Positions 1,510 through 62,100 of a stretch of 64,000 nucleotides of DNA are shown piece after piece. The DNA comes from Candidatus Omnitrophota bacterium (GTDB taxonomy: Bacteria; Omnitrophota; Gorgyraeia; Gygaellales; Profunditerraquicolaceae). The stretch spans positions 14,619 through 78,618 of the forward strand of contig JAQTQG010000003.1 of NCBI GenBank assembly GCA_028712375.1, written 5' to 3'. The position numbers were made by a program, and so were the translations under genes. The notes under the pieces were generated by a model that worked only from the letters and a program-made list of their open reading frames with translations, was not told the DNA's origin and did no database searches. The stretch's first letter is position 1. Each line of letters opens with the position of its first letter.

Positions 1510-1736
1510 ATGATCGCTAAGACTTATAGTTTTGGCCTGCTGGGCCTGGAGGCTTACCCGGTAGAGATTGAAATTGATGTAGCAAGCGGACTGCCGGCGA
1601 TTAACCTGGTAGGGCTGGCCGATACCGCAATTAAAGAAAGTAAAGAGAGAGTGCGCTCGGCCATTAAAAATTCAGGGTTCCAATGGCCTGCCCAAAGAAT
1701 AACGGTAAACCTGGCCCCTTCCGATATCAAGAAAGA
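1510..1736 (+). pseudogene. comM: comM/yifB 5' fragment (aa 1-75), truncated by insertion
   Basis: Translation MIAKTYSFGLLGLEAYPVEIEIDVASGLPAINLVGLADTAIKESKERVRSAIKNSGFQWPAQRITVNLAPSDIKK matches the ComM/YifB N-terminal (Lon-protease-like) domain. After codon 75 the frame runs into unrelated sequence. The continuation is at 20963. Confidence 0.75.
1723..1736. repeat. left junction direct repeat GATATCAAGAAAGA (attL core candidate)
   Basis: A 14-bp sequence repeated with one mismatch at 20963-20976. It lies exactly at the comM break point. Confidence 0.6.
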
Positions 1737-1774: not shown

Positions 1775-3262
1775 CTAAAAGTTATACTCAATCTCTATCT
1801 TTCCCCCTATAAATACCCTGATAACCTTAATTAAGTCGTTAATCAAATCTCTTTTTTCCTGATCATTAGCCTCAGCCCAGGTAGACTTAAACTCCTTATA
1901 GAATCTACTTTGGCTCTTAAAATCATCCTTTTTTGTTTGTTCTCGCTCAAGTTTAATTCTAGCCTCTAAGATAGAGCATCCTATGCTATCTATTTCTTGT
2001 TTTATCCTCTCCAGCCTACTTAGGACGTCCTCATCATCCGATTTTTCAAGGGCGTTAAGTATCCTTTCTTTTGCCCTTTTTTTACCCTGAAGAGAATCTT
2101 CCTTATTTTTTATCTCTCCTCTAAGTCGGGTAATTTCTATCTGGGAATTTATTTTAAGATGTTTGAATAAATAAGATTCATCTGAAGATAATCCTTCCAC
2201 GTGTTTGAAAATCTCTTCCAGCACCTTATTTTCTAGAAAATCTTTACGATAATTTTTTCTATGCCTACACTTTCCGGGGTTCGTTCTTCTAAGAGAACAG
2301 GCATAATAATACAGATTTCCCCCGATCTTCTTCTGGCTCTTAGTTTGCTTCTGAACTAATTGGTGTCCACACTCACCGCACTGGGCAACATCCCTGATAA
2401 AGAATCCGGGAGCAATAAGTCCAACCTGAGCATGATTCTGGAAGTTCTGTTTTAAAATCTCCTGGGCCTTGGTAAAAACATCTTCACTAATTATCTCTGG
2501 ATGTTTTTTCTCATAGGTTTTTCCCTTTACCATCATCCTGCCTGTATATTTAACATTCTTTAGTATCCGTCTAATCTGCGTGTCTCTTATCAAAAAAGGT
2601 AAAGCGATCTTCTGATTTATCAATTCTTTTACTACTCGCTTATTACTCTTAAACCTGTTATACAGCTCGAAAATTAATCTTACTTTCTCGGCTTCTTCTT
2701 CAACTATAACAAAATGCTTGTTCTCTGATCTATAACCAAATGGAGGATACCCGCCGAAGTTTGTCCCATCCCGAGCAACCTTAATATATCTAGCAGTTAG
2801 GTTACGTTCTCTTATAGTATTTAATTCCATCTCGGCAAAGATCGCAGTTATCTGCATTACAAGTTTCCCCATATCACTAGAGGTATCAAAGGGCTGAGTA
2901 GCTGAAATGAAGACAACTTTGTTCTGCTCAAACTCTTTAAACAAGGTTAGCGTATCAAGAGCAGACCTTGAAATTCTATCAAGACGCCAAACCAATAGGG
3001 CTTTAACCTGGCCTTTGGCGATATCAGCCCTCAGCCTTTGTAATTCAGGCCTTTCGGTGTCGCTACCGCTTAGTTTATCAATATAGAAATCGGAATCTGT
3101 AAGAGGAAGATACCCGTGCAGCTTAGCGCTGTTTAAAATACCTTCCTTCTGCATATCAAGCCCAACCCTATTTACTTCGGCCTGCTCAAGCGTTGAAACT
3201 CGGAGATACGCTTTCGGTTTTATCTGTTCTGTGTTCATTAGTTTTATTTTGCCTTCTTTCAA
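1775..3262 (-). CDS. large serine recombinase (resolvase/invertase N-domain + recombinase domain + zinc ribbon)
   Basis: 495 aa. N-terminus AYLRVSTLEQ...GLDMQ is resolvase-type with the catalytic Ser. Central recombinase domain, a CGECGH...YYYACS zinc-ribbon and a C-terminal coiled coil. Stop codon lies 38 bp from the junction repeat. Confidence 0.85.
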   Translation of the reverse strand: MKEGKIKLMNTEQIKPKAYLRVSTLEQAEVNRVGLDMQKEGILNSAKLHGYLPLTDSDFYIDKLSGSDTERPELQRLRADIAKGQVKALLVWRLDRISRSALDTLTLFKEFEQNKVVFISATQPFDTSSDMGKLVMQITAIFAEMELNTIRERNLTARYIKVARDGTNFGGYPPFGYRSENKHFVIVEEEAEKVRLIFELYNRFKSNKRVVKELINQKIALPFLIRDTQIRRILKNVKYTGRMMVKGKTYEKKHPEIISEDVFTKAQEILKQNFQNHAQVGLIAPGFFIRDVAQCGECGHQLVQKQTKSQKKIGGNLYYYACSLRRTNPGKCRHRKNYRKDFLENKVLEEIFKHVEGLSSDESYLFKHLKINSQIEITRLRGEIKNKEDSLQGKKRAKERILNALEKSDDEDVLSRLERIKQEIDSIGCSILEARIKLEREQTKKDDFKSQSRFYKEFKSTWAEANDQEKRDLINDLIKVIRVFIGGKIEIEYNF

Positions 3263-7558: not shown

Positions 7559-8317
7559 TTACCCTACTTTAACTTCTTTCAGTATTTTCTGGTAAATACA
7601 GAAATCACAATCAGCACTATATTCAGGAACTACGGGACCCACCAAGCATTTATACATCTCAATAATCTTAGCCTCAATCCAAGAATCATTTCCGTCATAA
7701 GGTATTATTTTGATATCGAAATCAAGCTTTGCACTAAAGGTATCCCTGTCAGTAAGCCCATTGCAATACACAAAATAACCGGTTGGAGATACATTAAAAC
7801 CGTTTTTTCTGAATAACCACTGGTATATTTCCATCTGCCTCTTATAAGATATCTGCCAATCAGCATCTATGCTTACTTCTTCTTCCTTTGATGTGCTCTT
7901 GTAATCTACGATAAATAGCTGGCCATCCGATGAGGCCCAAACGTCATCTATCCCCCCTGTAAGTAAAAGATTTGTCGGTATGTGCAGATATTCAATACCA
8001 CCATGAAGAGCATCCCGCCAGATATTCAGCTTATCGTGCTTAAAAGGAACCGCCTTGATCCCATTTGCTTCCATAAGAGGATGGCTTATCTGTTTATTCC
8101 GATAGACATCGAATTCTTTCTTCAGTAACTTGTCTACTGCTGAATTTAGTGTAAAAGGGAACCCGGGTGGTTGCCCTACGCCTAATCTTCTGTCTAAATA
8201 GAAGCAACGTGGGCAATTTATGAATAGTTCAATTTTGGAGCGGCTTAGTTTAAATGGAATTTTACTATGCGGATCGAATAAATTCTTAGTTTTTCTACCA
8301 GTATAGTATTTAGACAT
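7559..8317 (-). CDS. Cas4/RecB-like PD-(D/E)xK nuclease with Fe-S cysteines
   Basis: 252 aa. Motifs GGIDDVW...LFIVDYKST (D...D/ExK) and QMEIYQW (QxxxY). An N-terminal CPRC and a C-terminal C...CDFC fit the 4-Cys cluster arrangement of Cas4/AddB-type nucleases. Confidence 0.6.
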   Translation of the reverse strand: MSKYYTGRKTKNLFDPHSKIPFKLSRSKIELFINCPRCFYLDRRLGVGQPPGFPFTLNSAVDKLLKKEFDVYRNKQISHPLMEANGIKAVPFKHDKLNIWRDALHGGIEYLHIPTNLLLTGGIDDVWASSDGQLFIVDYKSTSKEEEVSIDADWQISYKRQMEIYQWLFRKNGFNVSPTGYFVYCNGLTDRDTFSAKLDFDIKIIPYDGNDSWIEAKIIEMYKCLVGPVVPEYSADCDFCIYQKILKEVKVG

Positions 8318-8461: not shown

Positions 8462-10351
8462 TTAAGAAATAGTTACAACCGCTTCTGCTTCTGACCAAGT
8501 GTTTATCAAATCCAATATTTTTTGAATTTGAATCGGATAATCTTCTAATGAAAGATCTTCATATTTCATAAAAGCAGCTCCGATCTTGCCATGTTTTTCT
8601 ACTTGATTTGTAGCTATGCCTATAATGTTTTCAAGTTCTGGTGTAATTTTGATGATCTTCCCAATATTTTTATCCAAAGAACCATCAATAAAATCGTTTT
8701 CTTTAAACATTCTGAGCTCAGATTCTTCTTTGTCTGTTTTATTAGGTTTATTTTCTGGAAAGTTAATAGGGTCTATATCATGGATAGCAACGTAAGGAAC
8801 TTTGAACTTATTAAGTACTCGCATAAATATATGTATATTGGTTTTTCCGCCACATTCAACTACGCATATGTTTTTAGCAACGAAGTCATATTTTTTATCT
8901 TTTACAGTAAATTTTGTTGCCCAGAAAGGAACTATAAATTTTTCGGTATCACCTTCAACCAATACTACTTTCTTAGAGAAAAACATTTCACTACGCGATA
9001 AGTCAAAAAGGCTTAAATAACGGAAAACTTTTTTTAACCTATTGTTTTCCTGTGTGGTTTCAGCAGCAAATATATCTCCAACAAATTGAAAGGTATTTGT
9101 TGGACCTTTTTCCTCACGCCCAACGATCACGATATTCTTGTATTCAAACATATCTACAAAAAAGTTAGAATGTGTACAGGCCAATATTTGATCAGTAGTT
9201 GCGATATTCCTTAAAACTTCAATCATCTTTCTTTGGCCATTAGGATGTAAATATAGTTCTGGTTCCTCAATTGCAAGTATAAAATTTTTCACCAAGGCTT
9301 CCGGTTGATCTTCTTCTACAATTACAGTACTTACTGTTTTAGCATAAGCTCTTATATAAGCTAAAATTAGTGCACGTTGAAGACCATGTCCCTTAGAATC
9401 AATCGAAGTAGGCAAAGCGTCATCTAAAGTAATATTCACATCTTTAAATAAATCAACAAGTTCGGGAGTGACGATTTCAATACCAACCTTTGTTCCTGGC
9501 ATACTTTCGCTTATTATGCCTGTAATAGTGCTTTCGAAATCTTTTATTTCCTGTAATCGGTCTGAGTCATCTCCAGTACCTGATTTATTTAAATATTTCT
9601 TCAACCCTTCGAGCTGGTTCTTAACCTCTTCAAATTTTGGATTCTTTAAAACTATCCTATTTGTTAAATCGGTTACTAACTTCCCTAATACAGTTTGCTG
9701 TGTAGTCTTAGATTCATCACATGCATCTTTTACAGCAGGAACCAAATAAAATTTAGGCAACAAATCAGCAAATACTTCTTTGAGGCCTGCAGGATTCTTT
9801 ATCCAATCTGGATCACCAAATTCCACTTTTCCGTCCTCTATACACTTCATAACCCCTTCTTTATATGAAGCCTGGGTCACGGTTCCCTTATCAGTTTTAA
9901 AATAGTCTGGTAAATTTTTATCTTTCACAATTTTTGCAATATCCCCTTTATATTCATCAAATCTTGATAGATCAAAATGGAGCTCGCGAGGCTTAGCTTG
10001 CCATCCATAAAACGTCGTTTCATATTTTTCACTCTGATTATTATACTCTACGACCTTTTTCACTCGAATTGCATGGTCATAGATCCAATGCTTAAGATAC
10101 TTTTGTTTTTCATCATACTCAGTTAATCTATCAAATGTCAAAATAATAGTGATTGGTTCATTATTCTTTTTGAAATAAAAATATTCCTCGTTTATCCCCT
10201 TAACCGAATCTTGATAGAATAATTCTATTGCTCGAAGTATATTGGATTTACCTGCATTATTCTCTCCAATAAACATAGCCAATGAATCTATTTCAATTTC
10301 TATGCTGTCTATGGACTTAAATTTGTGTATTTCGACTTTACGTAACTTCAT
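8462..10351 (-). CDS. OLD-family ATP-dependent endonuclease (ABC ATPase + TOPRIM)
   Basis: 629 aa. N-terminus MKLRKVEIHKFKSIDS...FIGENNAGKSNILRAIELF is the OLD/AAA_15 Walker A. The C-terminus VVLVEGDTEKFIVPF...VVECGGKTN...VAIHDID is a TOPRIM domain with E, DxD-like and G motifs. Confidence 0.8.
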   Translation of the reverse strand: MKLRKVEIHKFKSIDSIEIEIDSLAMFIGENNAGKSNILRAIELFYQDSVKGINEEYFYFKKNNEPITIILTFDRLTEYDEKQKYLKHWIYDHAIRVKKVVEYNNQSEKYETTFYGWQAKPRELHFDLSRFDEYKGDIAKIVKDKNLPDYFKTDKGTVTQASYKEGVMKCIEDGKVEFGDPDWIKNPAGLKEVFADLLPKFYLVPAVKDACDESKTTQQTVLGKLVTDLTNRIVLKNPKFEEVKNQLEGLKKYLNKSGTGDDSDRLQEIKDFESTITGIISESMPGTKVGIEIVTPELVDLFKDVNITLDDALPTSIDSKGHGLQRALILAYIRAYAKTVSTVIVEEDQPEALVKNFILAIEEPELYLHPNGQRKMIEVLRNIATTDQILACTHSNFFVDMFEYKNIVIVGREEKGPTNTFQFVGDIFAAETTQENNRLKKVFRYLSLFDLSRSEMFFSKKVVLVEGDTEKFIVPFWATKFTVKDKKYDFVAKNICVVECGGKTNIHIFMRVLNKFKVPYVAIHDIDPINFPENKPNKTDKEESELRMFKENDFIDGSLDKNIGKIIKITPELENIIGIATNQVEKHGKIGAAFMKYEDLSLEDYPIQIQKILDLINTWSEAEAVVTIS

Positions 10352-10708: not shown

Positions 10709-12220
10709 CTATTCTGGAGCTCCCATAATAAAACCTGTGGTAAGCCCTTTTTCTTTAAACCAACTTTTTAATATGCCCTTACTTCCAGCAATTGCCGTAT
10801 CAATTTCTGAATCCGTTGGGGCACTCCACATTTGCCAGTTAAATAATCTTGCTAAACATGCTTTTATTTTTGAGTAGTCGCTATCCACTAAATCCCTATA
10901 AAATGGCTTAGCTTTCTCATCTCCATCATGAATATCTAATTTCGCACATATTGCGTCTCGCAATAGTTCTGACCAGGCCATAATTGATTTTGAAGAAAAT
11001 ATCCTACTGAGTTTACGCTGATTTTGATCACTAGGCGCGGCTGCAGGATTCCAATGTGAAAGCGCAAGTTCAAAAATCATATTCATTAAAGCAATAACAT
11101 TCTTAAACTCTGATTCTCTCCTATATTTTTCTGAAAACATATCATCATCAAGAGGCTCGGTATAAAGAAAACAAGCAAGGATTGACTTAGAGAGCATATC
11201 CACAGTAAGCGGTTGTTCATTGGAGCTCCTATTACTTGTTGAAACGAGTGGTTTGAGTTTATTAGACTCATCTTCAAGAATAGAATTATATAAGTAACTA
11301 CGGAAACGCTTGTTTCGCTCGCCCCGCGTAAGAGATATGTCTTTCTGCTCTAGAAATGACAAAAAACCACTTTCATTTTTTTTCTCAATATCTTCTCTAT
11401 TTTTATACTCTTCAAAATCTTTCCCAAATTGATTCCCTAATTTAAGAATTAATACTGACGAAAAAAATCTTGTTTGGGCGAATTTATCATGTGCTGATAT
11501 ATTAGCTTGATTAAGCATCCTCAAGTCGGGATCAAGATAGATCTTGCATTCAAATGTCTTTCTCCCATTCCACAATATCGCAGCTGCCTTGTGTTGACCA
11601 TCAAAAAGCAATATCCTATTATTTGAAACACGTCCTATTGAAGGTTGCAAAACTGGATAAATCTGGAAATGACGAAACATTTCAAATACTTTATCAAAAA
11701 TCAAATAACGTGGTTGTAGGCCCAAATGTTCATTATCATCATCATCGCTGTTAAGAATTGATATGGGTAAATTACCATAAAAATATTTCCAACCGGTTCG
11801 CGGACAGGTTTGGATATTAAACTGAGATGAAAAGGAGTGGTGTTGTAAAGTAACTGTTTTATCTTGGACATTAATAGCAACCGCTTCTCCAAAAGACTCA
11901 ATATCACCTGCCTTTTTTAAGTGCGTAATTAGATTACGCAATGTTAATCTATCGCCTTCTTCAAAAAATGATTCAAGTCGAAGTTTTATACGAAAATCCC
12001 CTAGAGGCAACATTCCCTTCGCCTTATTATGGTATTCGCACATAGGTGCAATATTATCAAGTTCTGATTGCCCATCTCGAGCATAAGCCCAAATATGGTC
12101 AAAATGAACCCTCTCCCCTTCCGGGATTGCATGCCCATTGGCAAAGCAAATACGCCCATGTCGATTTAAAATTATTTTCTTTTCATCATCATTGATTTGC
12201 CTTTTTAGAGTAATTGCCAT
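10709..12220 (-). CDS. HNH endonuclease fused to DGQHR (DndB/ParB-like) domain protein
   Basis: N-terminus C..NGH......HFDHI.......N...MCEYHN is an HNH motif. The central LLFDGQHKAAAIL is the DGQHR signature of the DndB branch of ParB/Srx-fold proteins. C-terminal ~200 aa unknown. Confidence 0.65.
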   Translation of the reverse strand: MAITLKRQINDDEKKIILNRHGRICFANGHAIPEGERVHFDHIWAYARDGQSELDNIAPMCEYHNKAKGMLPLGDFRIKLRLESFFEEGDRLTLRNLITHLKKAGDIESFGEAVAINVQDKTVTLQHHSFSSQFNIQTCPRTGWKYFYGNLPISILNSDDDDNEHLGLQPRYLIFDKVFEMFRHFQIYPVLQPSIGRVSNNRILLFDGQHKAAAILWNGRKTFECKIYLDPDLRMLNQANISAHDKFAQTRFFSSVLILKLGNQFGKDFEEYKNREDIEKKNESGFLSFLEQKDISLTRGERNKRFRSYLYNSILEDESNKLKPLVSTSNRSSNEQPLTVDMLSKSILACFLYTEPLDDDMFSEKYRRESEFKNVIALMNMIFELALSHWNPAAAPSDQNQRKLSRIFSSKSIMAWSELLRDAICAKLDIHDGDEKAKPFYRDLVDSDYSKIKACLARLFNWQMWSAPTDSEIDTAIAGSKGILKSWFKEKGLTTGFIMGAPE

Positions 12221-13139: not shown

Positions 13140-13988
13140 ATGAAGTTTGCCGATGTAAATAAGACCATAATAAAGCTGTGCAAAGATAACAGTTTGGATT
13201 TCTTAGCTGAATGCGAAGCTATCCAATCTGAAGTTGATGCCTGCTCTCTACCTGAAATTCTCGACCATTTAGATAATGCAGGTATCATACCCGAATGTTT
13301 TGATCACGATTCTACGGAAGAAAAGTTGTTCGCAAAGTATTGTGACTCTTTATTAGCTCGTGGGTTACGAGAAATAGGATTAAACGCATATACAATACCA
13401 GAACGCAGTGATGCGGCTGATGTTCAAGGGAAGGGTAGCAATTACACTATTGTTGGAGATGCTAAAGCGTTTCGTCTTAGCAGAACAGCAAAAAACCAAA
13501 AAGATTTTAAGGTCGAGGCTCTTGATAAATGGAGAAATGGATCCGATTTCGCTGTATTAGTAAGCCCTCTTTACCAGTACCCAAATACAAATAGCCAGAT
13601 TTACTCACAAGCAATAAGGTATAATGTTACCCTATTATCTTATACCCACCTAGCTTTCCTAATAAGAAATAGAAATAATATAAAGAATGGCTCTCTTAGG
13701 GGATTATGGGAAATCGGAAAAAAGCTCTCTATTGGTAAAAGCGCCAAATCATACTGGGGATTAATTGACGCTAAAATGCTAGAAATTACCGGGAAGGATA
13801 AAAAGGATTGGGATAGCGCTATAGAAACAGAATACAAATGCTTAGTTCAGAGAGCTAAGGACGAGATTAAGTATTGGGAAGATGAAAAAGCAAAGATATT
13901 AAAATTGTCTCACGATGCGGCAATACAAGAACTAATTAAGGCTAGGAAAATAACAGAAAAGGTCGGAGTTATTAAGCAGTTTATATAG
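13140..13988 (+). CDS. putative Type II restriction endonuclease (PD-(D/E)xK candidate)
   Basis: 282 aa, convergent with and 8 bp from the methyltransferase gene. ...FDHD...ERSDAADVQ...YTIVGDAKAF is compatible with a D...(D/E)xK active site. Inference only. Confidence 0.4.
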   Translation: MKFADVNKTIIKLCKDNSLDFLAECEAIQSEVDACSLPEILDHLDNAGIIPECFDHDSTEEKLFAKYCDSLLARGLREIGLNAYTIPERSDAADVQGKGSNYTIVGDAKAFRLSRTAKNQKDFKVEALDKWRNGSDFAVLVSPLYQYPNTNSQIYSQAIRYNVTLLSYTHLAFLIRNRNNIKNGSLRGLWEIGKKLSIGKSAKSYWGLIDAKMLEITGKDKKDWDSAIETEYKCLVQRAKDEIKYWEDEKAKILKLSHDAAIQELIKARKITEKVGVIKQFI

Positions 13989-13995
13989 CGTTGAT

Positions 13996-16200
13996 TTAAA
14001 GAGATTTTCTTTTTGTGATTTTGAAGCCTGAATAGAGTGTTGAGATGTAGTCTGAAATACTCATAATCATATCTGCATCACATCCACCCCCAGTGATGTT
14101 CTTATAGTTGACCAGTAACCCAATTCCCTGTGCGAATATTGCCAACCCAATGTCTTTCTCGCTCCATCCCGCTTCTTTCAACACATTACCATAATCAGAT
14201 ACGTAAGAAGATACCTTAGCAATTATTTCGGGGAAAGATATTGATGATTTCTCTTCCATTGTTTTATGACAGACGAAGGTAATGCAAGTATCTATTGCTT
14301 CTGATGTCATGCCGCGAGGTCTTGCTTTTCTTTCTATACTAAGTGGTTGCACGCTTGTGATTATAAAATTAGTGTCTCTAAACGCCCGAATAATTGCGTC
14401 CCATCCGCCTAGTGAGCTATGGCTATAAATAAACGATAGGACGCCGTCATATTTCAAAACTCTCTCAGCTTCTTTTATCGCCTTGCCTAATTCTAAGCAA
14501 TACTTATCGTGAGCTTCAAGGGCCGATTGACTACGAAATGCTGAAGCAACTAATTCGGAACCAAAGCTAGTGTCTTGTTTGTTAAATAAATCCGGATCAA
14601 CATTTTTTAATAAAATTCTTTTCCACGCATAAAAGAAATCCGCTAATATGCTGTAATAAATATTATCATAGTATGGGGGATCTGTTATAATTGCATCAAA
14701 ATAATTGCTCTTAAATGGGAGGTTTTGGGCAATTCCACAGTTTACTTCCGGTTTATATGGAAATTTTTCGATGGAGCTAATGCCTGAAATGATACGGTCG
14801 AGCTTATCCCAAAGATTAGCTGGGCCATTCATTATGGGGTCTATTTCGCCATAATCCCAAAGCATGGGAACGCCTGGACCGCAAAAAGCTCGCCCCATCT
14901 GTTCATTTTGCGAAATCCACATAGATAAACGACAATTCCAATCCACAAGTTGATCAATTAAACTCGCCAATACAGAAATAGCAAAATCCGCCAACTCCTT
15001 TGAATTCTGCTCCTTCAATAACCGATATTCATCTTTCAGACACTTTATCAAAGACAGTAGAACCACCCTCTGCCTTTTATTGACAAAATCACTATGAGTT
15101 TCTATGCCGTAAACTGAGGGGTTCACAATGCCGGACCATTTGGGCAATTTCGTATTTGGAAGACTGCTTTCTAAAGATTTTAATAAATCATTTTCAAGAT
15201 GAGAGATCTTAACGGCTGAGGGAATCAGCAAATCGTTGTTTTCTATAAGCAAAAACTCTTTCCCGGATTTTTCTTTCCGCTTAACAAAAGCAATTAGCTC
15301 ATCTCGAGTGTTGCTAATATCAACTTTTTCAACTATATGAGAGCATTTTGGGCATTTAGCAGACCCATTTCGACCTTCCCAATTTGAGTTATGTTCATAT
15401 TTGTCATCCACTTCCTTAATCCCAATATGCTGTCGATCCTTGGAATTATTTATAATAATTGCTATTCGCTTATTTTTCTTGCGTGACAGCCAGGGTCTTT
15501 TTATTAAATAATATACATATTTACATTTTGGGCATTTTAATGAATACGTCCAGAAATACACTACAGGTGGTCTTTGTTTCGTCTCGGATATCTCACCCTG
15601 CTTACTTCTTGATACCCCTCCCTTCCTCAATGGAAACAATTCATTTGTTGCTTCTTCTAAAGACTTTAAAACACGAATGCCAGATTTCCTTACAATATCT
15701 TCGGCACTTCTTAAATCAACTTTCTGCGAGTATTCAAGATTTGCTTTTTGTATAAAAACAGACAATTCATTCGCATCAATAGAGTATGCTTTGGCACCTA
15801 TGTTGGCTATTTCTAATGGTATTGTTCCTCCACCACCAAACATATCTAGGGCCTTTGGAGGAACTACGTATTGTTCTTTAATAATAGCTCGGGCTTTATC
15901 TATGGCACTTTTGTTTGCATCCCCCGCTAACTCAACCATTATTTCATACATTTTAGGTGTACTTATTTTACATAGAGAAGCAAACGCAAGTATCCTCATA
16001 GCAGAATGAGGTCTTCGAGCCCACCAAACGTGGAGTGTATGCGACGTTTCTCCACTTCGGTATCGTTCCGCAAGACCAGCTATTGAGGCTTCGTAATGTA
16101 AAAGTCCACTATCTATCAAACGATGTTCCGAAGTGTTTGGGATCAGAGCAATTTCAGGACTTGATTGGGTTTTATTTTGACACATACTACTTATTGGCAT
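13996..16200 (-). CDS. DNA methyltransferase, N6-adenine/N4-cytosine type, alpha-class with DUF1156-like N-terminus and internal zinc ribbons
   Basis: 734 aa. N-terminal LHVWWARRP motif (DUF1156-like). Motif I DMFGGGGT. Internal CPKCKY...CPKCSH ribbons (putative TRD). Motif IV ITDPPYYDN. The order I-TRD-IV indicates alpha class. Confidence 0.75.
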   Translation of the reverse strand: MPISSMCQNKTQSSPEIALIPNTSEHRLIDSGLLHYEASIAGLAERYRSGETSHTLHVWWARRPHSAMRILAFASLCKISTPKMYEIMVELAGDANKSAIDKARAIIKEQYVVPPKALDMFGGGGTIPLEIANIGAKAYSIDANELSVFIQKANLEYSQKVDLRSAEDIVRKSGIRVLKSLEEATNELFPLRKGGVSRSKQGEISETKQRPPVVYFWTYSLKCPKCKYVYYLIKRPWLSRKKNKRIAIIINNSKDRQHIGIKEVDDKYEHNSNWEGRNGSAKCPKCSHIVEKVDISNTRDELIAFVKRKEKSGKEFLLIENNDLLIPSAVKISHLENDLLKSLESSLPNTKLPKWSGIVNPSVYGIETHSDFVNKRQRVVLLSLIKCLKDEYRLLKEQNSKELADFAISVLASLIDQLVDWNCRLSMWISQNEQMGRAFCGPGVPMLWDYGEIDPIMNGPANLWDKLDRIISGISSIEKFPYKPEVNCGIAQNLPFKSNYFDAIITDPPYYDNIYYSILADFFYAWKRILLKNVDPDLFNKQDTSFGSELVASAFRSQSALEAHDKYCLELGKAIKEAERVLKYDGVLSFIYSHSSLGGWDAIIRAFRDTNFIITSVQPLSIERKARPRGMTSEAIDTCITFVCHKTMEEKSSISFPEIIAKVSSYVSDYGNVLKEAGWSEKDIGLAIFAQGIGLLVNYKNITGGGCDADMIMSISDYISTLYSGFKITKRKSL

Positions 16201-16519: not shown

Positions 16520-17134
16520 TTAAACACTAAGTAGCTCGGCACACTCCGCCAGATCTTCCTTCGTTACGCCCGTGTAGATCTGCGTCGTAGAAACGAACTT
16601 GTGTCCCAAAAACTCCTGCACCTTCCGGATGTTGCCACACTTTCGCATTAACTCCGTCCCAACCGTGTGCCTCAGACAGTGTGGTGAATATCTTCCTTCC
16701 AAGCCACTTTCACTAACCCATTTATTAAGGTTTAACTGCACTGCCCTCTGGGTAATTCTTTTGTTGTTCCTTGATAAAAATAAGGGTTCGCTCAAGGAGA
16801 AGCCTTCATCCTTTGCCTTTCTCTGCCTAATGTATTTATCTATGTGGGCTCTAATATCCTTGTTTAATGGTATTTGCCTAATCCTGTCGCCCTTGCCTTT
16901 TATCTCCAACACTTCCTTTGACGAATAGCCGTTGTGCACATCCTTGGCATTAAGGTTGATCGTTTCACTAAGGCGTAATCCAGTATTAAGCATAAGGTCA
17001 AACATACAATAATCACGCCAGGCTTTCCTGCTGTCGGCAAGTGTCTTTAAGAATTGTTTCTTTTGTTCAGAAGTCAGATATCTTATCGTGTTCCTCTTGG
17101 CCATTTCACACCTCTTCGTTAATATACTGCTCAA
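16520..17134 (-). CDS. tyrosine site-specific recombinase, catalytic domain only (XerD-like)
   Basis: 204 aa. GLRLSE (Arg I), HCLRHT (H-x-x-R), LGH and TQIYTGV (Tyr nucleophile). Lacks an N-terminal core-binding domain. Confidence 0.8.
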   Translation of the reverse strand: MSSILTKRCEMAKRNTIRYLTSEQKKQFLKTLADSRKAWRDYCMFDLMLNTGLRLSETINLNAKDVHNGYSSKEVLEIKGKGDRIRQIPLNKDIRAHIDKYIRQRKAKDEGFSLSEPLFLSRNNKRITQRAVQLNLNKWVSESGLEGRYSPHCLRHTVGTELMRKCGNIRKVQEFLGHKFVSTTQIYTGVTKEDLAECAELLSV

Positions 17135-17576: not shown

Positions 17577-19037
17577 CTATGAATTAGCAAAAAAACCTAT
17601 CTTGGTTTTATTGTCCTTAACAAAGATTCCGTCCTGTTCTAGACTCGCTCCAAACAAAAGGTCATTCATTGTAATAATATTCCTTTTCTCTTGAACCAGC
17701 CGTCGCAGGGCGTGGAAGACAGCATTCTTGATGTAGCCACCACTAAACTGAAATTGTCTGGCCAGAACAGCAAAATCAACACCTTGGGCAAGAGTTACCT
17801 TGCTTGGAATATGCGATCGCCAAATTTCTTTGCGTATCTTCTCATCAGGCAAATCAAATTTAACCTTTAAAGTAACTCTGCGTTCAAGTGCAGGATCAAG
17901 CAAATTATCCATGTTCGAAGTTAAGATTACCACTCCTTCAAACCGTTCAATTTCCTGTAGCATAATATTAACAAACCTAATATCGTGTTCTTGGGCTGCG
18001 AAGTTGCGGTTATATAAAATAGAATCCGCCTCGTCAATACAGATAACAACATTATTTTGCTTTGCTGACTTAAAAATAGAAGATATTTGTTTATCGGTTT
18101 CACCAAACCAACGTGAATTTATTTTGGGAAATTCAACAACAAGCAACTTCTTCTTAAGATGTTTTGCTATTGCCTCAGATAACATCGATTTTCCCGTGCC
18201 GGGCGGACCGTAAAAGAGGAAAACCAATCCTTTGCCATTTTTAATTGTTTCTTCTACACCAAGATCTTCAAGTCCTTTATCCTGCAACCCGGATAATAAG
18301 AAACTGACGTTTTTCTTCACATCGAGAGATAGCTTAACATCTTCAAGAGAATATGCCGGATCCTTTAAAAAACCAACCTCTTCGCAAGGGTGTAAATCTT
18401 TTTTATTTTCTGCCCTTCCAGGTCTAGATTCTTTATACTCCCCACTTATCATCCTAGAAAAAACGTCCAACAAAGACGAACTCATCCCGAAACTGACTAC
18501 GGCCGAGTTGTGGTTGTTTCGATAATATGGGTACAAAATAGAATATTTTAAAAGATTGGCATTTCGGTTAAAATAACGAGACAACCCCATTCTCCCGATT
18601 ACAGAATCATTTAAGTCAAAGATCCTAAGGAGCAGATCCCTTGAACAGATATTCTCTTTTAGGTGCAAGAACTCCAAATAAAGGTAATATAGGAGTATTT
18701 GCTTTTCAAAGATATCCAAACCGTATAGCGAGGCAGTTTTTTCTAACGCAAACTTACTGCCCTTAGACATGGAATCCTGTACCCTTTGCCAAAACAAAAC
18801 TTCTTTTGTCTTTATTGTTGAGTCCAATTCTGATACATTCTTGCGGAATGCCTCTACATCATCCTTAGATTTCTTAATAAGAATAATTCTTTTGTTTTGG
18901 TAAAGTTCGCAGATCTTGAAATATTCTTCGATGTATTCTTGGTCACCTGAAAGAAAATTATTTTCCGGCATTACCTTTTCTCCTTTCTTTCTGCACAAAC
19001 TTATCAAAATCCTCAACTGTCTTTTTGAGCCTTTCAT
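17577..19037 (-). CDS. classic-clade AAA ATPase with unknown ~260-aa N-terminal domain
   Basis: Walker A GPPGTGKSML, Walker B VVICIDEADSI and second region of homology ILTSNMDNLLDPALERRV (CDC48/FtsH-like AAA). The true start may be the internal Met at ~18971. Confidence 0.8.
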   Translation of the reverse strand: MKGSKRQLRILISLCRKKGEKVMPENNFLSGDQEYIEEYFKICELYQNKRIILIKKSKDDVEAFRKNVSELDSTIKTKEVLFWQRVQDSMSKGSKFALEKTASLYGLDIFEKQILLYYLYLEFLHLKENICSRDLLLRIFDLNDSVIGRMGLSRYFNRNANLLKYSILYPYYRNNHNSAVVSFGMSSSLLDVFSRMISGEYKESRPGRAENKKDLHPCEEVGFLKDPAYSLEDVKLSLDVKKNVSFLLSGLQDKGLEDLGVEETIKNGKGLVFLFYGPPGTGKSMLSEAIAKHLKKKLLVVEFPKINSRWFGETDKQISSIFKSAKQNNVVICIDEADSILYNRNFAAQEHDIRFVNIMLQEIERFEGVVILTSNMDNLLDPALERRVTLKVKFDLPDEKIRKEIWRSHIPSKVTLAQGVDFAVLARQFQFSGGYIKNAVFHALRRLVQEKRNIITMNDLLFGASLEQDGIFVKDNKTKIGFFANS

Positions 19038-19632
19038 TCATCTGATCATTCATTAACTTTGTTAAGGCTATCGCTTTTTCATATTTCTTGCCATACCAAA
19101 TAAGTTTCTTCGTAGGTTTACCTTTGTAACACCACCGCTTAAAACTCGCCGCTTGCTTTATCAGTTCAGGCACATTGATTACGCCAAATTTCTTATAAAT
19201 ACCGCTTAATCTAGAACTCTCATAAGCAAGATCAAAACAGTTTCGACATCCAAAATAATTGCCGACCCTGTAAAGTACCCCTACCCGCCTATCACAGCCT
19301 AAGATTGACAAAGGACACTTAAACCAATATCTGACACCGCCGTAATTACAAGAAGTTGCGACTAAATCGACCCTGTATTCGAAATTCTGATATTCTCCAT
19401 TAGGCTGAAGAATAGAGTAATAGAAATCTAAGAATGGATCATTCTTGTTTATAAACGATACTACAATATGGATACCGTTTTTAAAGACTTCCCCATTATA
19501 AGGAATATCAATAATCCCAAAATCACTGGCTTCTAAAAAATCATTAAGTTTTAGTGATAATATTGGAATCTTGTAAAGGTTATCTGCCACCAACTTGGGG
19601 CTTTTATCTCTGTCCATTGTAAAACACCTCAA
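18958..19632 (-). CDS. Cys-rich hypothetical protein (putative zinc-binding), partner of the AAA ATPase
   Basis: 224 aa. SCNYGGVRYWFKCP...GCDRR...YFGCRNCFDLAY suggests a Cys4 zinc-ribbon-like cluster. Overlaps the AAA gene 5' end. Confidence 0.4.
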   Translation of the reverse strand: MRCFTMDRDKSPKLVADNLYKIPILSLKLNDFLEASDFGIIDIPYNGEVFKNGIHIVVSFINKNDPFLDFYYSILQPNGEYQNFEYRVDLVATSCNYGGVRYWFKCPLSILGCDRRVGVLYRVGNYFGCRNCFDLAYESSRLSGIYKKFGVINVPELIKQAASFKRWCYKGKPTKKLIWYGKKYEKAIALTKLMNDQMNERLKKTVEDFDKFVQKERRKGNAGK

Positions 19633-19738
19633 AAAAATGCCGAAATGAATAAGAATTCTTTGATTTCAATCTTAAATTGGTTGACCAATTTTGCCTTTTA
19701 TATAAACCAAAAATAACACGCAGAAATAATCAACTTTA

Positions 19739-20098
19739 TTACCATTCAATAATAATCTTCTTATCTAACATCTGCACTTTTCCGATAGCCTCCATTTTGA
19801 TTAGGCGTTTTCCCTTGTTTTCTGACACCTGGTTGAGTGATCTATCTTTTGACATAGCAAAACACCTTTTTGACTCATTCCCCTCGGAAAATCGTGTTGA
19901 GTTGGTCAAAACGCCTTCCAGAATTGACCTGACATATACTCTGCTAGGACCAATTCCTTTTCTAGCAGGATTGTGCCCCATTCTGAATGGGAACAAATAA
20001 CAACCCGTCGTGTTATCACAGAAGCGAACATCTTTAGGCCTACCTGCACAAATAAGACAGTGTTTTCGGATGGCTTGTAACGGCGTAAGGTGTTTCAT
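19739..20098 (-). CDS. small hypothetical protein (119 aa) with CLIC...C...C motif
   Basis: ORF only. Weak. Confidence 0.25.
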   Translation of the reverse strand: MKHLTPLQAIRKHCLICAGRPKDVRFCDNTTGCYLFPFRMGHNPARKGIGPSRVYVRSILEGVLTNSTRFSEGNESKRCFAMSKDRSLNQVSENKGKRLIKMEAIGKVQMLDKKIIIEW

Positions 20099-20293
20099 TT
20101 ATAACCCCCTTTCGTGCCCACTCTTCTGGCCTACGACCGGAATCAACTTTACTGAGAGTAGTTCAAATTCACTTAAGTTGTCTCCTCTGTCGTTTTTCAA
20201 TATTACTTTGGCTGTTGAGGAACTCCGCCGAAGGCGGATAAATGTATAACTACTCTTTTGTACAATACTCTTCTGTAAAGTATTCTATTGTGT

Positions 20294-20385
20294 CCCCCTA
20301 CTTAGGGGGTAGCGAATAACCTATATAGGAGACAGTAAATAACCCACTTAGGGGGTAGCAATAACCCATATAGGGGTAGCAAATA
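20294..20385. repeat. iteron-like direct repeats with embedded 7-bp palindrome
   Basis: The unit ACTTAGGGGGTAGC(G)AATAACC(T/C)ATATAGG occurs at ~20299-20329 and ~20346-20375, with a third partial TAGGGGTAGCAAATAG at ~20371-20385. The first copy begins with CCCCCTA-CT-TAGGGGG, a perfect inverted repeat. Confidence 0.5.
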
Positions 20386-20402
20386 GTATAACTAAATCCA
20401 TA

Positions 20403-20831
20403 TTAACTTGGCTTCACCCATATCATCCTGCCCTCTATGTACGGGTAATCTTTGCCGTTCTTCACTTCAGATCCCTCCTTAATATCTATACGAATCTTCC
20501 AGCTTTTCCGCTTGCCTTTGGTTACTGTTATCACCCACTTTCCAGCGTCCTGCTCAATCCCAATTTTTCTTCCATCCCGGGTTATCATTTTTTTCTCCAA
20601 TAGCTTTTTCTTTGTTCTAGGTACGTGAGATAATGGTATACCAGTGCTATTTTCGATTTGGCTGTTGGAAATCCAGTCCAAATCCTTTTGGTACCCTAAG
20701 GTCTTCATAACAATAAACCACCACAAGGCGTGCTCGTACGGACTAAGGTAACGAGCAATCCAAACATAACCCATTCTCAACAAACGCCAAGGCAGTTTTA
20801 TGAAACGTACATTATCTTTTAGATCTGCCAT
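20403..20831 (-). CDS. putative replication initiator / replisome-organizer-like winged-helix protein
   Basis: 142 aa. N-terminal FIKLPWRLL... and a GIPLSHVPRTKKKLLEKKMI winged-helix-like segment resemble phage/plasmid RepA_N / replisome-organizer N domains. Directly adjacent to the iterons. Confidence 0.4.
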   Translation of the reverse strand: MADLKDNVRFIKLPWRLLRMGYVWIARYLSPYEHALWWFIVMKTLGYQKDLDWISNSQIENSTGIPLSHVPRTKKKLLEKKMITRDGRKIGIEQDAGKWVITVTKGKRKSWKIRIDIKEGSEVKNGKDYPYIEGRMIWVKPS

Positions 20832-20954
20832 TTATTCAGCTCCTTTCCTGGTCATTTCCCCAAGGGAAAATACCACTTTTCTTTCTTTTTTATTGGTAAT
20901 TTTTAATTGCTATAACTTTAAGATAATTAAAGAGATGAGATATATCCTTGCGGA

Positions 20955-22298
20955 ATGCACTCTGATATCAAAAAAGAGGGCGCTTGTTTTGATTTAGCCA
21001 TTGCCCTGGGCATTCTGGCGGCAACCGGGCAGATCGGCAAAGAGCGCCTTCAAAACTACTCTTTTCTGGGAGAATTATCCCTAGACGGCCAATTGCGGCC
21101 GGTGCATGGCGTTCTGGCGATAAGTTTAACTATCTCTAAATTCCCGGTTAAGAGCCTTGTTCTTCCCGAAAAGAACGCTCAGGAAGCAGCGGTTATACAA
21201 GAAATTTCTGCCTGGCCGCTCAAAAACTTAAAAGAAGTGGTGCAATTTTTAGCTGATCCCGGAAGCCGAAGCCCATTTAAATTAGATATTAACCACGTTT
21301 TTAAAGGCGGTGGGAATTATACTTTGGATTTCTCCGAAGTTAAAGGCCAATATTTTGCAAAAAGAGCGCTGGAAGTGGCGGTATCCGGGGGGCACAATAT
21401 TATTATGCTCGGTCCGCCCGGCAGCGGGAAAACTATGTTAGCTAAAAGGATTCCCACTATTATGCCTAACCTTTCCTTAGAAGAAGCTCTGGAAATCACC
21501 AAAATCCATTCCGTAGCCGGGACGCTATTAAATGATAATTTTATCAGAACCCGGCCCTTTCGCTGCCCGCATCACAGTATTTCAGATACCGCCTTAATCG
21601 GAGGAGGCAGCGTGCCTAAACCCGGAGAGATCAGCCTGTCTCATTACGGCGTGCTCTTTCTGGATGAACTCCCGGAATTTAACCGCAAGGCCCTGGAAGC
21701 ATTAAGACAGCCGCTGGAAGACAACCTGATTTGTATCAGCCGCGTAAAAAGAACCCTGGTATTCCCGGCTTGTTTTATTTTAGCCGCCGCGCTTAACCCT
21801 TGTCCGTGCGGCAATTATTTTAACCCGCACAAACCATGCCATTGCAACCCGACAAAAATCAAAAATTACCTGGGGAAAATTTCCGGGCCGCTGCTGGATA
21901 GAATCGACCTGCACATTGAAGTCCCGCAGGTAAAACACCGGGAATTATCAGACGCGCGGGAAGCAGAATCATCGGCAGCCATCCGGCAACGCGTAGAAAA
22001 CGCCCGCGCAATTCAACAAAAAAGATTCTCCGCCATAGGCAAATCCGGCTCCACAAGCATATTTTGTAACGCCCAAATGACCAATAGGCTCATTAAAGAA
22101 TATTGTGTTTTAGATGCCGAGGCTAGTAACTTATTAAATATGGCAATAACCGAATTGGCCCTATCGGCAAGGGCTTATGATAAAATACTTAAGGTGAGCC
22201 GGACGATTAGTGACCTGGCAGGCAGCCAAAACATTAAATCCGAACATGTTGCCGAGGCAATTCAATACCGCTCTTTAGACCGGCAGCTCTCCGGATAA
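20955..22298 (+). CDS. comM: comM/yifB 3' portion (Mg-chelatase-like AAA+ ATPase, aa ~71-end)
   Basis: SDIKKEGACFDLAIALGILAA continues the N-fragment exactly. Walker A GPPGSGKTMLAKR, Walker B LFLDELPEF, and a C-terminal Mg-chelatase ChlI-like domain. The ATG at 20955 is fortuitous and created by the insertion. Confidence 0.8.
   Translation: MHSDIKKEGACFDLAIALGILAATGQIGKERLQNYSFLGELSLDGQLRPVHGVLAISLTISKFPVKSLVLPEKNAQEAAVIQEISAWPLKNLKEVVQFLADPGSRSPFKLDINHVFKGGGNYTLDFSEVKGQYFAKRALEVAVSGGHNIIMLGPPGSGKTMLAKRIPTIMPNLSLEEALEITKIHSVAGTLLNDNFIRTRPFRCPHHSISDTALIGGGSVPKPGEISLSHYGVLFLDELPEFNRKALEALRQPLEDNLICISRVKRTLVFPACFILAAALNPCPCGNYFNPHKPCHCNPTKIKNYLGKISGPLLDRIDLHIEVPQVKHRELSDAREAESSAAIRQRVENARAIQQKRFSAIGKSGSTSIFCNAQMTNRLIKEYCVLDAEASNLLNMAITELALSARAYDKILKVSRTISDLAGSQNIKSEHVAEAIQYRSLDRQLSG
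20963..20976. repeat. right junction direct repeat GATATCAAAAAAGA (attR core candidate)
   Basis: Matches 1723-1736 at 13 of 14 positions. Lies at the point where the comM reading frame resumes. Confidence 0.6.
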
Positions 22299-24854: not shown

Positions 24855-25841
24855 TTAACGCGTGATTACTTCAATTACGGAGGTAGTGCTAGAGACAGAG
24901 CCTGCCTGGTCGCTGACGGTAAGAGTAACTGTAAAATTACGCGGCCCAAAAGTAGTGCTCCAGTAGGTATTTTCAGGATTTTTCTGGGTAGAAGTGTCTC
25001 CATCGCCGAAATCCCAAGCATAAGAAACAATCTTGCCTGCCCGGGAGTAAGACTTTTGCGCGGAGAATGCTACTTTAAGCGGAGAATAACCTCTAGCGGG
25101 CTTAGCAATAATCACCGCCACTGGCGGCTCTGGTGCCGGTTTGGCTGCGGGAACTTCTTCGGCCGCCGGATGTTTAATGGCTACAGGCTCGGAAACAGGC
25201 ATAACAGGTTCTGCAACAGGTGCAACTACGGGTTCTGCTTTGGCTGCCGCCGGCGGCACCACTGGCGCGCTCTGGGCAACCGGCTTCACAGCAACCACAG
25301 GTTCCATTACCTTGGGCAGCTCTTCCTTTGGTTCAGGTTTAGTCTCCACTATAGCCGGAACCCCGGTTTCTTGTGCTAGATCTTCAGCAACATAAACATC
25401 AAGCTCTTTCTTAAGCTTAGCTATGCGCGCTGCTTCCAATGTCTCTTTCTCTTCATCCAGCCTATCCACTTTAGCTTTATACCCGGGGTTATGATTATAC
25501 TTATAATCTGCTGCTGCCCGGAACGGCCAATTTAAAACTCCTCCCAAAAATCCTACAATCATCGAGGGGGGTTCCCAAAACATCTCTTTCAGGCGTGATT
25601 CAATCTGGCCCATCTGCTTATAATAAAACTCTACTTTGGATTTACGGCGCTTAAAACGCTCCTTAGCTAAATTCAAATCCGGGAGCGACTTCTCTTTACC
25701 CACAGTATATTCAATAATCGGCTTATCATCATAATAAGCCAGATAACCTTGGGCACCTGAAGCGGTAGACTTTTGAAATTTATAAGTAGCGCAACCGGAT
25801 AAAAATAATACCAGGGATAAAAATAATAAAAAATTCCGCAA
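24855..25841 (-). CDS. lipoprotein with Pro/Ala-rich linker and C-terminal PKD domain
   Basis: Lipobox LSGC. Long PVAxPV low-complexity linker. C-terminal YAWDFGDGDTS...TVTLTVSD is a PKD-like fold. Confidence 0.55.
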   Translation of the reverse strand: MRNFLLFLSLVLFLSGCATYKFQKSTASGAQGYLAYYDDKPIIEYTVGKEKSLPDLNLAKERFKRRKSKVEFYYKQMGQIESRLKEMFWEPPSMIVGFLGGVLNWPFRAAADYKYNHNPGYKAKVDRLDEEKETLEAARIAKLKKELDVYVAEDLAQETGVPAIVETKPEPKEELPKVMEPVVAVKPVAQSAPVVPPAAAKAEPVVAPVAEPVMPVSEPVAIKHPAAEEVPAAKPAPEPPVAVIIAKPARGYSPLKVAFSAQKSYSRAGKIVSYAWDFGDGDTSTQKNPENTYWSTTFGPRNFTVTLTVSDQAGSVSSTTSVIEVITR

Positions 25842-54967: not shown

Positions 54968-54981
54968 AATAAATTAGTTTT

Positions 54982-55506
54982 TTAAACTACCGTATTTAAT
55001 AATAACTCTTTATCCGCACTTTGTATTTTATCCCAGCGCTCCAGAATCTTAAGTTTTAACCCGTAAACTAACAAATACTCAAAATCAAAATAGTGGCCAA
55101 GAATTAGGCCGTCTAAAAAATTCCATCTGGCCTGATCCAAAATTTTCTCCGATTCCAGGATGGAAACGCTGCGGTAAGCAGCCATCGCTACATGCACAAT
55201 CTGTGCCTGCGGCGAATCCGGAAGGCGCAGGAATTTTGATGGATCGATTTTTTTACGGCTGGCCCTGGCGCGTACCAATTCATTCCTCAGGGTTACCTCA
55301 AAATCAGCCCATTGTTTTAAACTACTGCTGCTGTGGCCGCCCAAAGAATAGCTTTCCTGATCAACGGCTGCATACAATATTTCAAAATCATTCTCTGGTA
55401 TTAAATTTTTGCATTTAGCAAAAAAATCCTTCAGGCTAAATGGCGGCCGGGAAAAAATATTCAATCCCGGCAAACTAGAAATTAAATACGTATAATAAGC
55501 AGCCAT
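54982..55506 (-). CDS. hypothetical protein within V-ATPase operon (possible degenerate C-subunit/DUF2764-like)
   Basis: 174 aa, between E and A. No motif recognised. Only position supports the call. Confidence 0.3.
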   Translation of the reverse strand: MAAYYTYLISSLPGLNIFSRPPFSLKDFFAKCKNLIPENDFEILYAAVDQESYSLGGHSSSSLKQWADFEVTLRNELVRARASRKKIDPSKFLRLPDSPQAQIVHVAMAAYRSVSILESEKILDQARWNFLDGLILGHYFDFEYLLVYGLKLKILERWDKIQSADKELLLNTVV

Positions 55507-61832: not shown

Positions 61833-62019
61833 AACTAGCGGTGATCAAACCTTTAACCTTGCAATCAAACAACTTTTTATTTATCCGCCATATTCACTCC
61901 ACTTATACCAACTTTATGAAGCAATAAAACCACCCTAACCACAATTTATCCTAAATTATAGAGTCTACACTCCACTTATACAGAAACTGCTCTCTACTAC
62001 ATGCTGAATATGATTTTAT

Positions 62020-62091
62020 TGCCCCTGACAGGAGTCGAACCTGTACCACTAGCTCCGGAGGCTAGTGCGCTATCCATTGCGCTACAGGGGC
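62020..62091 (-). tRNA. tRNA-Arg (anticodon CCG), CCA not encoded
   Basis: Reverse complement GCCCCTGTAGCGCAATGGATAGCGCACTAGCCTCCGGAGCTAGTGGTACAGGTTCGACTCCTGTCAGGGGCA. Anticodon loop CTCCGGA. Confidence 0.75.
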
Positions 62092-62100
62092 ATCAATAAT

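Follow-up and report, generated by a model that had tools for sequence, protein, structure and literature searches.

A stretch of 64,000 nucleotides from a Candidatus Omnitrophota bacterium (contig JAQTQG010000003.1, forward-strand positions 14,619 to 78,618; the window hereafter) probably holds, at positions 20224-20387, a replication origin of the phage lambda type, and the minus-strand gene directly 5′ to it probably encodes the cognate initiator, a protein of 142 amino acids (aa). The module, made up of both, is located at the right end of an island of 19.2 kb by which the gene comM is split. The original prediction had proposed a plasmid-type replicon module at an island end for this DNA. 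The iterons, the winged-helix initiator and the island within a split comM are indeed there, and the replicon is of the lambda O/ori type. Our assignment is carried by the family to which the protein belongs, by the anatomy of the origin, by the similarity of its DNA to ori-lambda and by a layout that is conserved in relatives. Read from its sequence, the module appears to be a lambda-type replicon with a split architecture, that is, the known O/ori system in a recognisable but rearranged form. Its parts are the following.

20403..20831, minus strand: gene of the short lambda-O-like initiator, 142 aa (PF04492 match)
20297..20387, minus strand: iteron array of four head-to-tail units (dyad pattern, spacing, likeness to lambda iterons)
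20247..20291, minus strand: A+T-rich segment with three 15-bp repeats, the presumed DNA-unwinding region (lambda ori alignment, family motif)
20224..20238, minus strand: GC-rich palindrome TCCGCC-TTC-GGCGGA that closes the origin (DNA fold)

The initiator was recognised from several protein comparisons. A Pfam scan of the 142-aa protein (E<=0.01) returned Phage_rep_O alone (PF04492, the N-terminal winged helix of lambda O), with 54.7 bits against a cut-off of 28.7 (E 1.5e-14, residues 2-99). RepA_N (PF06970), Phage_rep_org_N and Rep_3 were not among its matches, and the resemblance to RepA_N or replisome-organizer N-termini that had been suggested for this protein thus gave way to an O-type assignment. 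PHROG matches carried the description 'replication initiation O-like' (E 3e-16), tblastn with the protein matched O proteins of lambdoid phages, and BLASTP aligned it with lambda O itself at 27% identity (E 1e-9), the significant alignment being confined to O residues 22-144. These matches place the protein in the lambda O N-domain family. Its AlphaFold2 model is highly confident (predicted local distance difference test, pLDDT, 94.7) and shows a winged helix-turn-helix and, after it, a long beta-hairpin (residues 112-139). Foldseek searches with the model gave generic winged-helix regulators only (MarR, CRP/FNR and SlyA types, all at E>0.01), and a sequence search of the PDB gave insignificant winged-helix matches to cullins only, with no RepA or DnaD relative and no solved relative.

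An exhaustive HMMER search with the 142-aa protein found 951 relatives, most of them 200-330 aa long, while a word-indexed homologue search returned only the protein itself. Because the closest subgroup (P0002, P0004 and P0005, 41-51% identical) is likewise short and has the same C-terminal tail, the short form is a conserved one and not a broken gene. We tried the possibility that it is an O gene truncated by a nonsense mutation and rejected it: the frame past the stop codon holds several more stops in the window and in the two related loci L001 and L019, and the tail is conserved and confidently folded. A broader version of this idea, in which the whole module is what remains of a decayed prophage replication module and no longer has a function, would account for the missing C-terminal domain and for the absence of partner replication genes from the island. 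We consider it improbable, as the short open reading frame (ORF) and its tail are kept at 41-51% identity in other elements, the structural model is highly confident, three diverged loci have kept the origin grammar intact and the downstream synteny is kept.

The iteron array begins 16 nt past the stop codon of the initiator gene and extends to 106 nt, within a non-coding gap of 304 bp that separates co-directional genes. It consists of four contiguous units (20297-20319, 20320-20342, 20343-20364 and 20365-20387; 23, 23, 22 and 23 bp), each containing the imperfect dyad core CCTAWRTRGG, with starts at 20297, 20320, 20343 and 20365 and a spacing of 23, 23 and 22 bp. In its fuller form the dyad reads CC(C)(C)TA-WR-T-RGG(G). 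The core pattern, which was derived post hoc from the array itself, has a single further match in the window against 1.08 expected in total. The window-wide maximum of period-23 self-similarity (36/66 matches) is found at the array. In the original prediction these repeats were counted as three copies located immediately upstream of the 142-aa gene. All three copies are present (the GGGGTAGC-containing copies at 20303/20306, 20349/20352 and 20371/20373, with one other occurrence of GGGGTAGC in 64 kb), and the unit that had been missed is the degenerate second one, 20320-20342. The gene is likewise where it was expected; it is read from the minus strand, so that the repeats lie downstream of its stop codon, in keeping with O-family origins, which always come after the sequence for the N-domain. 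Two further features were confirmed as described, namely the two extended units starting at about 20297 and about 20343, which share the exact 14-mer ACTTAGGGGGTAGC at a distance of 46 bp, and the perfect inverted repeat CCCCCTAcTTAGGGGG at 20294-20309, which is formed by an extension of the iteron furthest from the initiator gene.

Sequences resembling parts of the iterons occur elsewhere in the island. CCCCCTA half-motifs are found just inside its left border, attL, at 1760-1766 and 1803-1809, and a full iteron core, CCTAAGTAGG, at 2015-2024, within the 3′ portion of the gene for the serine recombinase. The 64 kb contain six CCCCCTA/TAGGGGG 7-mers, five of which are located at the two island ends. 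If the island were excised as a circle, those at 1760 and 1803 would come to lie about 160-200 bp upstream of the initiator gene. The half-motifs near attL may be due to chance or may form a secondary binding site. The promoter region of the initiator gene has no iteron-like sites (at most one mismatch allowed). Its 5′ leader contains an imperfect palindrome, TTTCCCCAAGGGAAAA, at 20855-20870, 24-39 nt upstream of the ATG; this does not match the iteron core even at one mismatch, and it may be an autoregulatory site.

Past the fourth iteron the minus strand continues as GGGGGA followed by CACAATAGAATACTTTACAGAAGAGTATTGTACAAAAGAGTAGTTA, which comprises three A-rich repeats of 15 bp from 20291 to 20247 (ACAATAGAATACTTT, ACAGAAGAGTATTGT and ACAAAAGAGTAGTTA; 73% A+T). 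The palindrome at 20224-20238 comes next (DNA fold -6.5 kcal/mol, z -3.5). The order of elements, iterons, A-rich 15-mers and palindrome, is the same as in annotated ori-lambda, which reads ATCCCTCAAAACAGGGGGA and then CACAAAAGACACTATTACAAAAGAAAAAAGA before its own palindrome. To locate similarity at the DNA level we aligned lambda ori locally with every tile of the window on both strands. The best match fell exactly at the origin, 39 of 51 positions being identical (76%); it comprises iteron 4 and the A-rich junction and aligns with lambda CACAAAAGACACTATTACAAAAGA directly past iteron 4. Its score of 39 compares with a maximum of 28 in 500 shuffles and of 30 elsewhere in the window. A scan for intrinsic terminators found none, and an Rfam scan of 19000-21500 (E<=1) found nothing, so the hairpin is neither a canonical terminator nor a known RNA. 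There is no conserved DnaA box in the origin, the only candidate being a 7/9 match, TTATCCGCC, read by eye and absent from L001.

The same gap invites a regulatory explanation, in which the winged-helix protein would be a repressor that has been domesticated, with the repeats as an operator array that controls the downstream operon of three genes (for a 119-aa zinc-ribbon-like protein, a 224-aa Cys-rich protein and an AAA+ ATPase, described below). The location of the repeats between co-directional genes and the likeness of the fold to the winged-helix domains of MarR, CRP/FNR and SlyA-type regulators agree with it. It explains neither the direct DNA similarity to the unwinding region of ori-lambda nor the grammar of iterons, 15-mers and palindrome, which is common to O-family origins. 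Moreover, a promoter scan, whose calibration does not extend to this phylum, found no sigma-70-like promoter within the gap; its sole site lies outside, at 19643-19616 on the minus strand. We therefore hold an operator array to be quite unlikely.

The comparison with lambda can be drawn element by element. Ori-lambda, which is located inside gene O and which transcription activates, has four imperfect inverted-repeat iterons of 18-19 bp that are bound by O dimers, and beside them about 40 bp of A+T-rich DNA that open when O binds (PMC3349717, PMC5043065, PMC7466680). As in the window, its initiator carries an N-domain of the PF04492 family, its four dyad iterons have C-run, A+T and G-run arms at 20-24-bp spacing, A-rich ACAAAAGA repeats follow directly after the iterons and are themselves followed by a palindrome, and transcription of the initiator gene runs towards the origin and through it. 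The lambda dyad ATCCCTCAAAACGAGGGA resembles the C-run, A+T centre and G-run of the window's dyad, and the annotated lambda iterons (435, 455, 479 and 502 in L018) are spaced by 20, 24 and 23 bp versus 23, 23 and 22 bp here. The two systems differ in four respects. Lambda O has 299 aa and ends in a P-binding domain, whereas the window's initiator has 142 aa and a beta-hairpin tail instead; the lambda origin is inside the initiator gene, whereas those of the window, L001 and L019 are non-coding and downstream of it; a P-like loader gene has no counterpart in the island; and the carrier is a lambdoid enterobacterial phage in one case and a serine-recombinase defence island in a Candidatus Omnitrophica metagenome-assembled genome in the other. 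What appears to be new relative to lambda is thus the lack of a C-terminal recruitment domain and an origin not embedded in the gene, the N-domain family and the ori grammar being already known.

Related loci show how the two arrangements compare. We examined 12 full-length O-like loci, most of which have 3-7 iterons at 21-24-bp spacing inside the gene, starting directly past the region that encodes the N-domain. In most of these loci the iterons are followed by (T)ACAAAAGA repeats of about 15 bp, which in the full-length O genes encode TKDTITKE-like linker peptides. Such linker repeats are found in the O-family loci L003, L005, L008 and L012-L017 and in lambda (L018 522-556). In the short-O loci the ACAAAAGA repeats persist outside any ORF. 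Two independent short-O loci are arranged as the window is. L001, whose protein is 51% identical to that of the window, has five AACACnnnnnnAGTGTT-type iterons at 732-823, three copies of ACAATAGAGTA and a hairpin GGCC-TTC-GGCC, all non-coding and 3′ of the stop codon. L019 has GCTAGTCCTTAAnTAAGAAGT-type iterons, TTACAnAAGCACT repeats and a hairpin with a 9-bp stem, again downstream and non-coding. At the corresponding place, L001, L019 and lambda all have palindromes. Absence of the repeats from related islands had been raised as a possibility with the original prediction, and what we found is that iterons are present in related modules such as these two. An N6/N4 DNA methylase gene lies directly upstream of the short-O gene in L001 (1-208) and on the P0007 contig, and may be another recurrent neighbour.

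Other collections were searched as well. With an alignment of O proteins, a profile search of genome contigs gave no confirmed relative and one of viral contigs gave full-length O proteins only; the DNA pattern of the conserved 15-mer had 0 matches in the viral contigs. O-like 'replication protein' genes were found on plasmid records in PLSDB, one of them of 4.6 kb.

The iteron sequences differ among the window, L001 and L019, while the 15-mers are recognisably similar, those of the window and L001 being closest. This is the pattern that would be expected if the iterons specify the cognate initiator beside a common unwinding element. It also bears on another explanation, by which the truncated O protein and the iterons are an anti-phage decoy, a dominant-negative trap that titrates or poisons the initiators or origins of O-type phages. 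The module is inside an island rich in defence genes, its initiator lacks the helicase-recruiting domain, and plasmid-borne ori-lambda iterons (with oop) silence the theta replication of rep-lambda phages (PMC3349717). As the AT-rich part of lambda ori is dispensable for that inhibition (PMC3349717), a pure decoy would have no reason to retain it, and yet the A-rich 15-mers and the palindrome are kept in three diverged short-O loci. Iterons that differ between elements likewise suggest private cognate pairs and not the mimicry of one phage. A decoy is accordingly a poor candidate in our view.

The island that carries the module was delimited by its insertion into comM/yifB, which encodes an Mg-chelatase-like ATPase. 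A tblastn search with the N-terminus of Escherichia coli YifB located the two parts of the gene at 1510-1737 and 20961-22298, the 5′ part ending near 1737 and the 3′ part resuming at 20961, 19.2 kb apart. Imperfect direct repeats, GATATCAA[G/A]AAAGA, are found at both junctions, and the G+C content of the island is about 0.35 versus about 0.43 in the flanks. In addition to the origin module and the genes that follow it, the island has these features.

1723..1736, plus strand: attL identity block GATATCAAGAAAGA, left border inside comM (junction repeat)
1775..3262, minus strand: large serine recombinase at the left end, presumably the enzyme that integrates and excises the island (Resolvase, Recombinase and Zn_ribbon_recom domains)
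7559..8317: Cas4-like PD-(D/E)XK nuclease, defence cargo
8462..10351: OLD-family AAA_15+TOPRIM nuclease, defence cargo
10709..12220: HNH protein of 503 aa, defence cargo
13140..13988: HindIII-like endonuclease, defence cargo
13996..16200: DUF1156 type II methylase of 734 aa, defence cargo
16520..17134, minus strand: tyrosine recombinase of 204 aa (Phage_integrase catalytic-domain model, residues 19-192)
20964..20977, plus strand: attR identity block GATATCAAAAAAGA, right border inside comM (junction repeat)

The origin module lies at the right end of the island, with the iterons 575-680 bp from the attR core. The original prediction had offered, as its second option, that the repeats are arm-type binding sites for the recombinase of the island, and their location near the island end and the half-motifs inside attL at 1760 and 1803 fit that option. 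The recombinase adjoining att is, however, a large serine recombinase. Large serine recombinases use minimal att sites and are not known to use arm sites. In the tyrosine recombinase the catalytic-domain model takes up residues 19-192 of 204, which leaves no room for another domain and hence none for an arm-binding N-domain. Given also the distance of the array from attR and its homology to ori-lambda, which explains it, we regard arm-type sites as effectively refuted. Multimers of the excised circle might be resolved by the tyrosine recombinase, whose gene adjoins the replicon backbone.

Three genes follow the origin on the same strand.

19739..20098, minus strand: zinc-ribbon-like protein of 119 aa (CxxC...C...C), the next gene past the origin (synteny)
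18958..19632, minus strand: Cys-rich protein of 224 aa, a conserved backbone neighbour (homologues, synteny)
17577..19037, minus strand: classic-clade AAA+ ATPase with an N-terminal winged-helix-like region (PF00004)

The 119-aa protein has no match in Pfam, PHROG or NCBIfam and 26 metagenomic homologues; a related zinc-ribbon protein of 74 aa comes after the origin in L019, and the 119-aa protein is a putative member of the replicon. The 224-aa protein has 187 metagenomic homologues, none of them with a Pfam domain, and no PHROG or NCBIfam model. Its AlphaFold2 model has a pLDDT of 91, and Foldseek gives no credible fold match in the PDB. No relative of it was confirmed in the genome contigs and 0 were found in the viral contigs. 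Members of its family are located beside an AAA+ gene in L022 and beside a PrimPol-D5N helicase in L024 and L025, where the helicase is near a 374-aa homologue, and the P0006 contigs have the order short O, gap, 93-aa gene, 224-aa gene. The family may therefore represent replication or backbone proteins of mobile elements that are as yet uncharacterised. The AAA+ ATPase matches PF00004 (E 1e-26), with PF22977 below threshold, and its likeness to IetA is below the family cut-off (108 vs 510 bits; PADLOC E 6e-35); a remodeller and a defence ATPase are candidate roles for it. A homologous AAA ATPase of 471 aa is found in the same synteny in L022, where the tail of a 119-like gene is followed by a 223-aa gene, DUF6876 and the ATPase gene. 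As recurrent neighbours in metagenomic contigs, the 119-aa, 224-aa and AAA+ genes may belong to the replicon backbone.

A number of observations weigh against reading this segment as a lambda-type origin with its own initiator. The NCBIfam model of the O N-terminal region, TIGR01610, gives 34.5 bits with the 142-aa protein, below its cut-off of 45.5. The period-23 signal of the array is by itself no more than modestly above background; what makes the case for the array is where the repeats lie and what the relatives show. The short-O loci for which DNA is at hand number three, two of them on short contigs. The protein ends after its beta-hairpin, where lambda O has the C-terminal domain that recruits P, and scans with Pfam, NCBIfam and PADLOC found no helicase, helicase loader or primase anywhere in the island. 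Because all of these are missing, the self-sufficiency of the island is doubtful. Finally, no circular or attP form was recovered, and the only other assembly, L026, has the identical integrated form.

With these points in mind, the reading as a lambda-type theta origin that serves the excised island suggests the following course of events. First, the 19.2-kb island would be released from comM in circular form by the large serine recombinase. The four dyad iterons, phased by about two helical turns, would then be filled by dimers of the short O-like protein to give a wrapped complex resembling the 'O-some', the stress of which would open the adjacent segment of A-rich 15-mers. Transcription of the initiator gene into the origin may assist this opening, as transcription from pR does in lambda. 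For the next step, the loading of the replicative helicase, an initiator that lacks the P-DnaB-recruiting C-terminal domain of lambda O would have to rely on another partner. The zinc-ribbon protein, the 224-aa protein and the AAA+ ATPase encoded downstream, a loader of the host, or the machinery of an infecting phage are candidates for this step. Binding, unwinding, replication of the excised circle and the loading route are all inferred. O-type replicons are able to drive plasmids, for example lambda-dv (PMC5043065).

If the helicase came from an infecting phage, the origin would be helper-dependent: it would fire only during phage infection by hijacking the replication proteins of the phage, and would amplify the defence island and compete with the phage, as the phage-inducible chromosomal island-like element (PLE) of Vibrio does. 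This explanation differs from that of an origin served by other partners solely in the source of helicase loading, and we consider it possible, if rather less than likely. The window shares with the Vibrio cholerae PLE RepA/ori system a large serine recombinase, an initiator that only binds DNA, non-coding semi-palindromic iterons and an anti-phage island, with no helicase or primase in the island; in PLE this combination, RepA and ori, replicates only during ICP1 infection (PMC7145576). The set of a satellite is also present in the window, as an integrase and a predicted initiator and origin of its own are found on a small island. On the other hand, searches of the island ORFs with Pfam, PHROG, NCBIfam and PADLOC, which left several ORFs without annotation, found no terS-like, capsid, capsid-redirection or packaging genes, no helper phage is known, and the conserved neighbours (the zinc-ribbon, 224-aa and AAA+ proteins) could provide the missing functions. 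The dependence of PLE on its helper phage was shown experimentally, whereas that of the module here would be putative, and satellite packaging functions were not seen.

Two other groups of replicons share part of this design. The Staphylococcus aureus pathogenicity islands and other phage-inducible chromosomal islands (SaPI/PICI) are integrative islands in which an iteron origin flanks or adjoins an AT-rich stretch directly 3′ of the initiator gene. Their arrangement resembles that of the window in having the iteron origin 3′ of the initiator gene on an integrative island (see also PMC6092414, PMC7145576). Their initiators have a helicase activity of their own and come with primases, and they are thereby self-sufficient (PMC7145576), whereas the initiator of the window has no helicase or primase domain and belongs to another protein family, and the integrase here is a serine and not a tyrosine recombinase. 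Iteron plasmids of the Rep_3 and RepA_N types (pPS10, F, R6K, pSK41) have phased repeats, an A+T-rich element and a winged-helix initiator, as does the window (PMC5043065). Their iterons are direct repeats bound by monomers (PMC5043065), in contrast to the units of the window and lambda, which are dyads suited to dimers, and in the window the initiator matches neither Rep_3 nor RepA_N in Pfam, and the origin lacks a conserved DnaA box.

On a more tentative level, the short-O modules could represent a distinct and widespread 'split' lambda-type replicon of uncultivated bacteria, with a stand-alone N-domain, an origin outside the gene and helicase delivery by conserved partners or an infecting phage; we put this forward with clear reservation. 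As a corollary, the TKDTITKE linker of O proteins would be conserved for a signal in the DNA of the unwinding region and not for the function of the protein. That the ACAAAAGA 15-mers act as DNA is argued by their retention in non-coding DNA, where they are 76% identical to those of lambda across phyla. The signal is possibly read by the O N-domain itself, the sole protein common to all these systems.

By way of such a module, a defence island of the serine-recombinase type could, once excised, persist or amplify in a phylum of which little is known. The module would also carry the classic lambda O/ori grammar, with its iterons, A-rich 15-mers and palindrome, well outside the lambdoid phages. 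With its origin split from the coding sequence and its initiator cut to the DNA-binding domain, it would amount to a natural experiment, in which two questions that are confounded in lambda become separable: whether the A-rich repeats act as DNA, and how the helicase is recruited without the O C-terminal domain. For annotation, short 'replication protein' ORFs of the O family are best annotated together with the origin that follows them.

Other repeats were noted in the window away from the island. Exact 14-nt direct repeats, CACTCCACTTATAC, are found 73 bp apart at 61895-61908 and 61968-61981, beside a tRNA-Arg gene (62019-62092), and another exact 14-nt pair, GGATAAAAATAATA, lies 18 bp apart at 25797-25828. 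The strongest short-period self-similarities of the window, with periods of 15 and 33, are located inside ORFs at about 54900-54990 and about 55930-56030, and presumably encode repetitive peptides.

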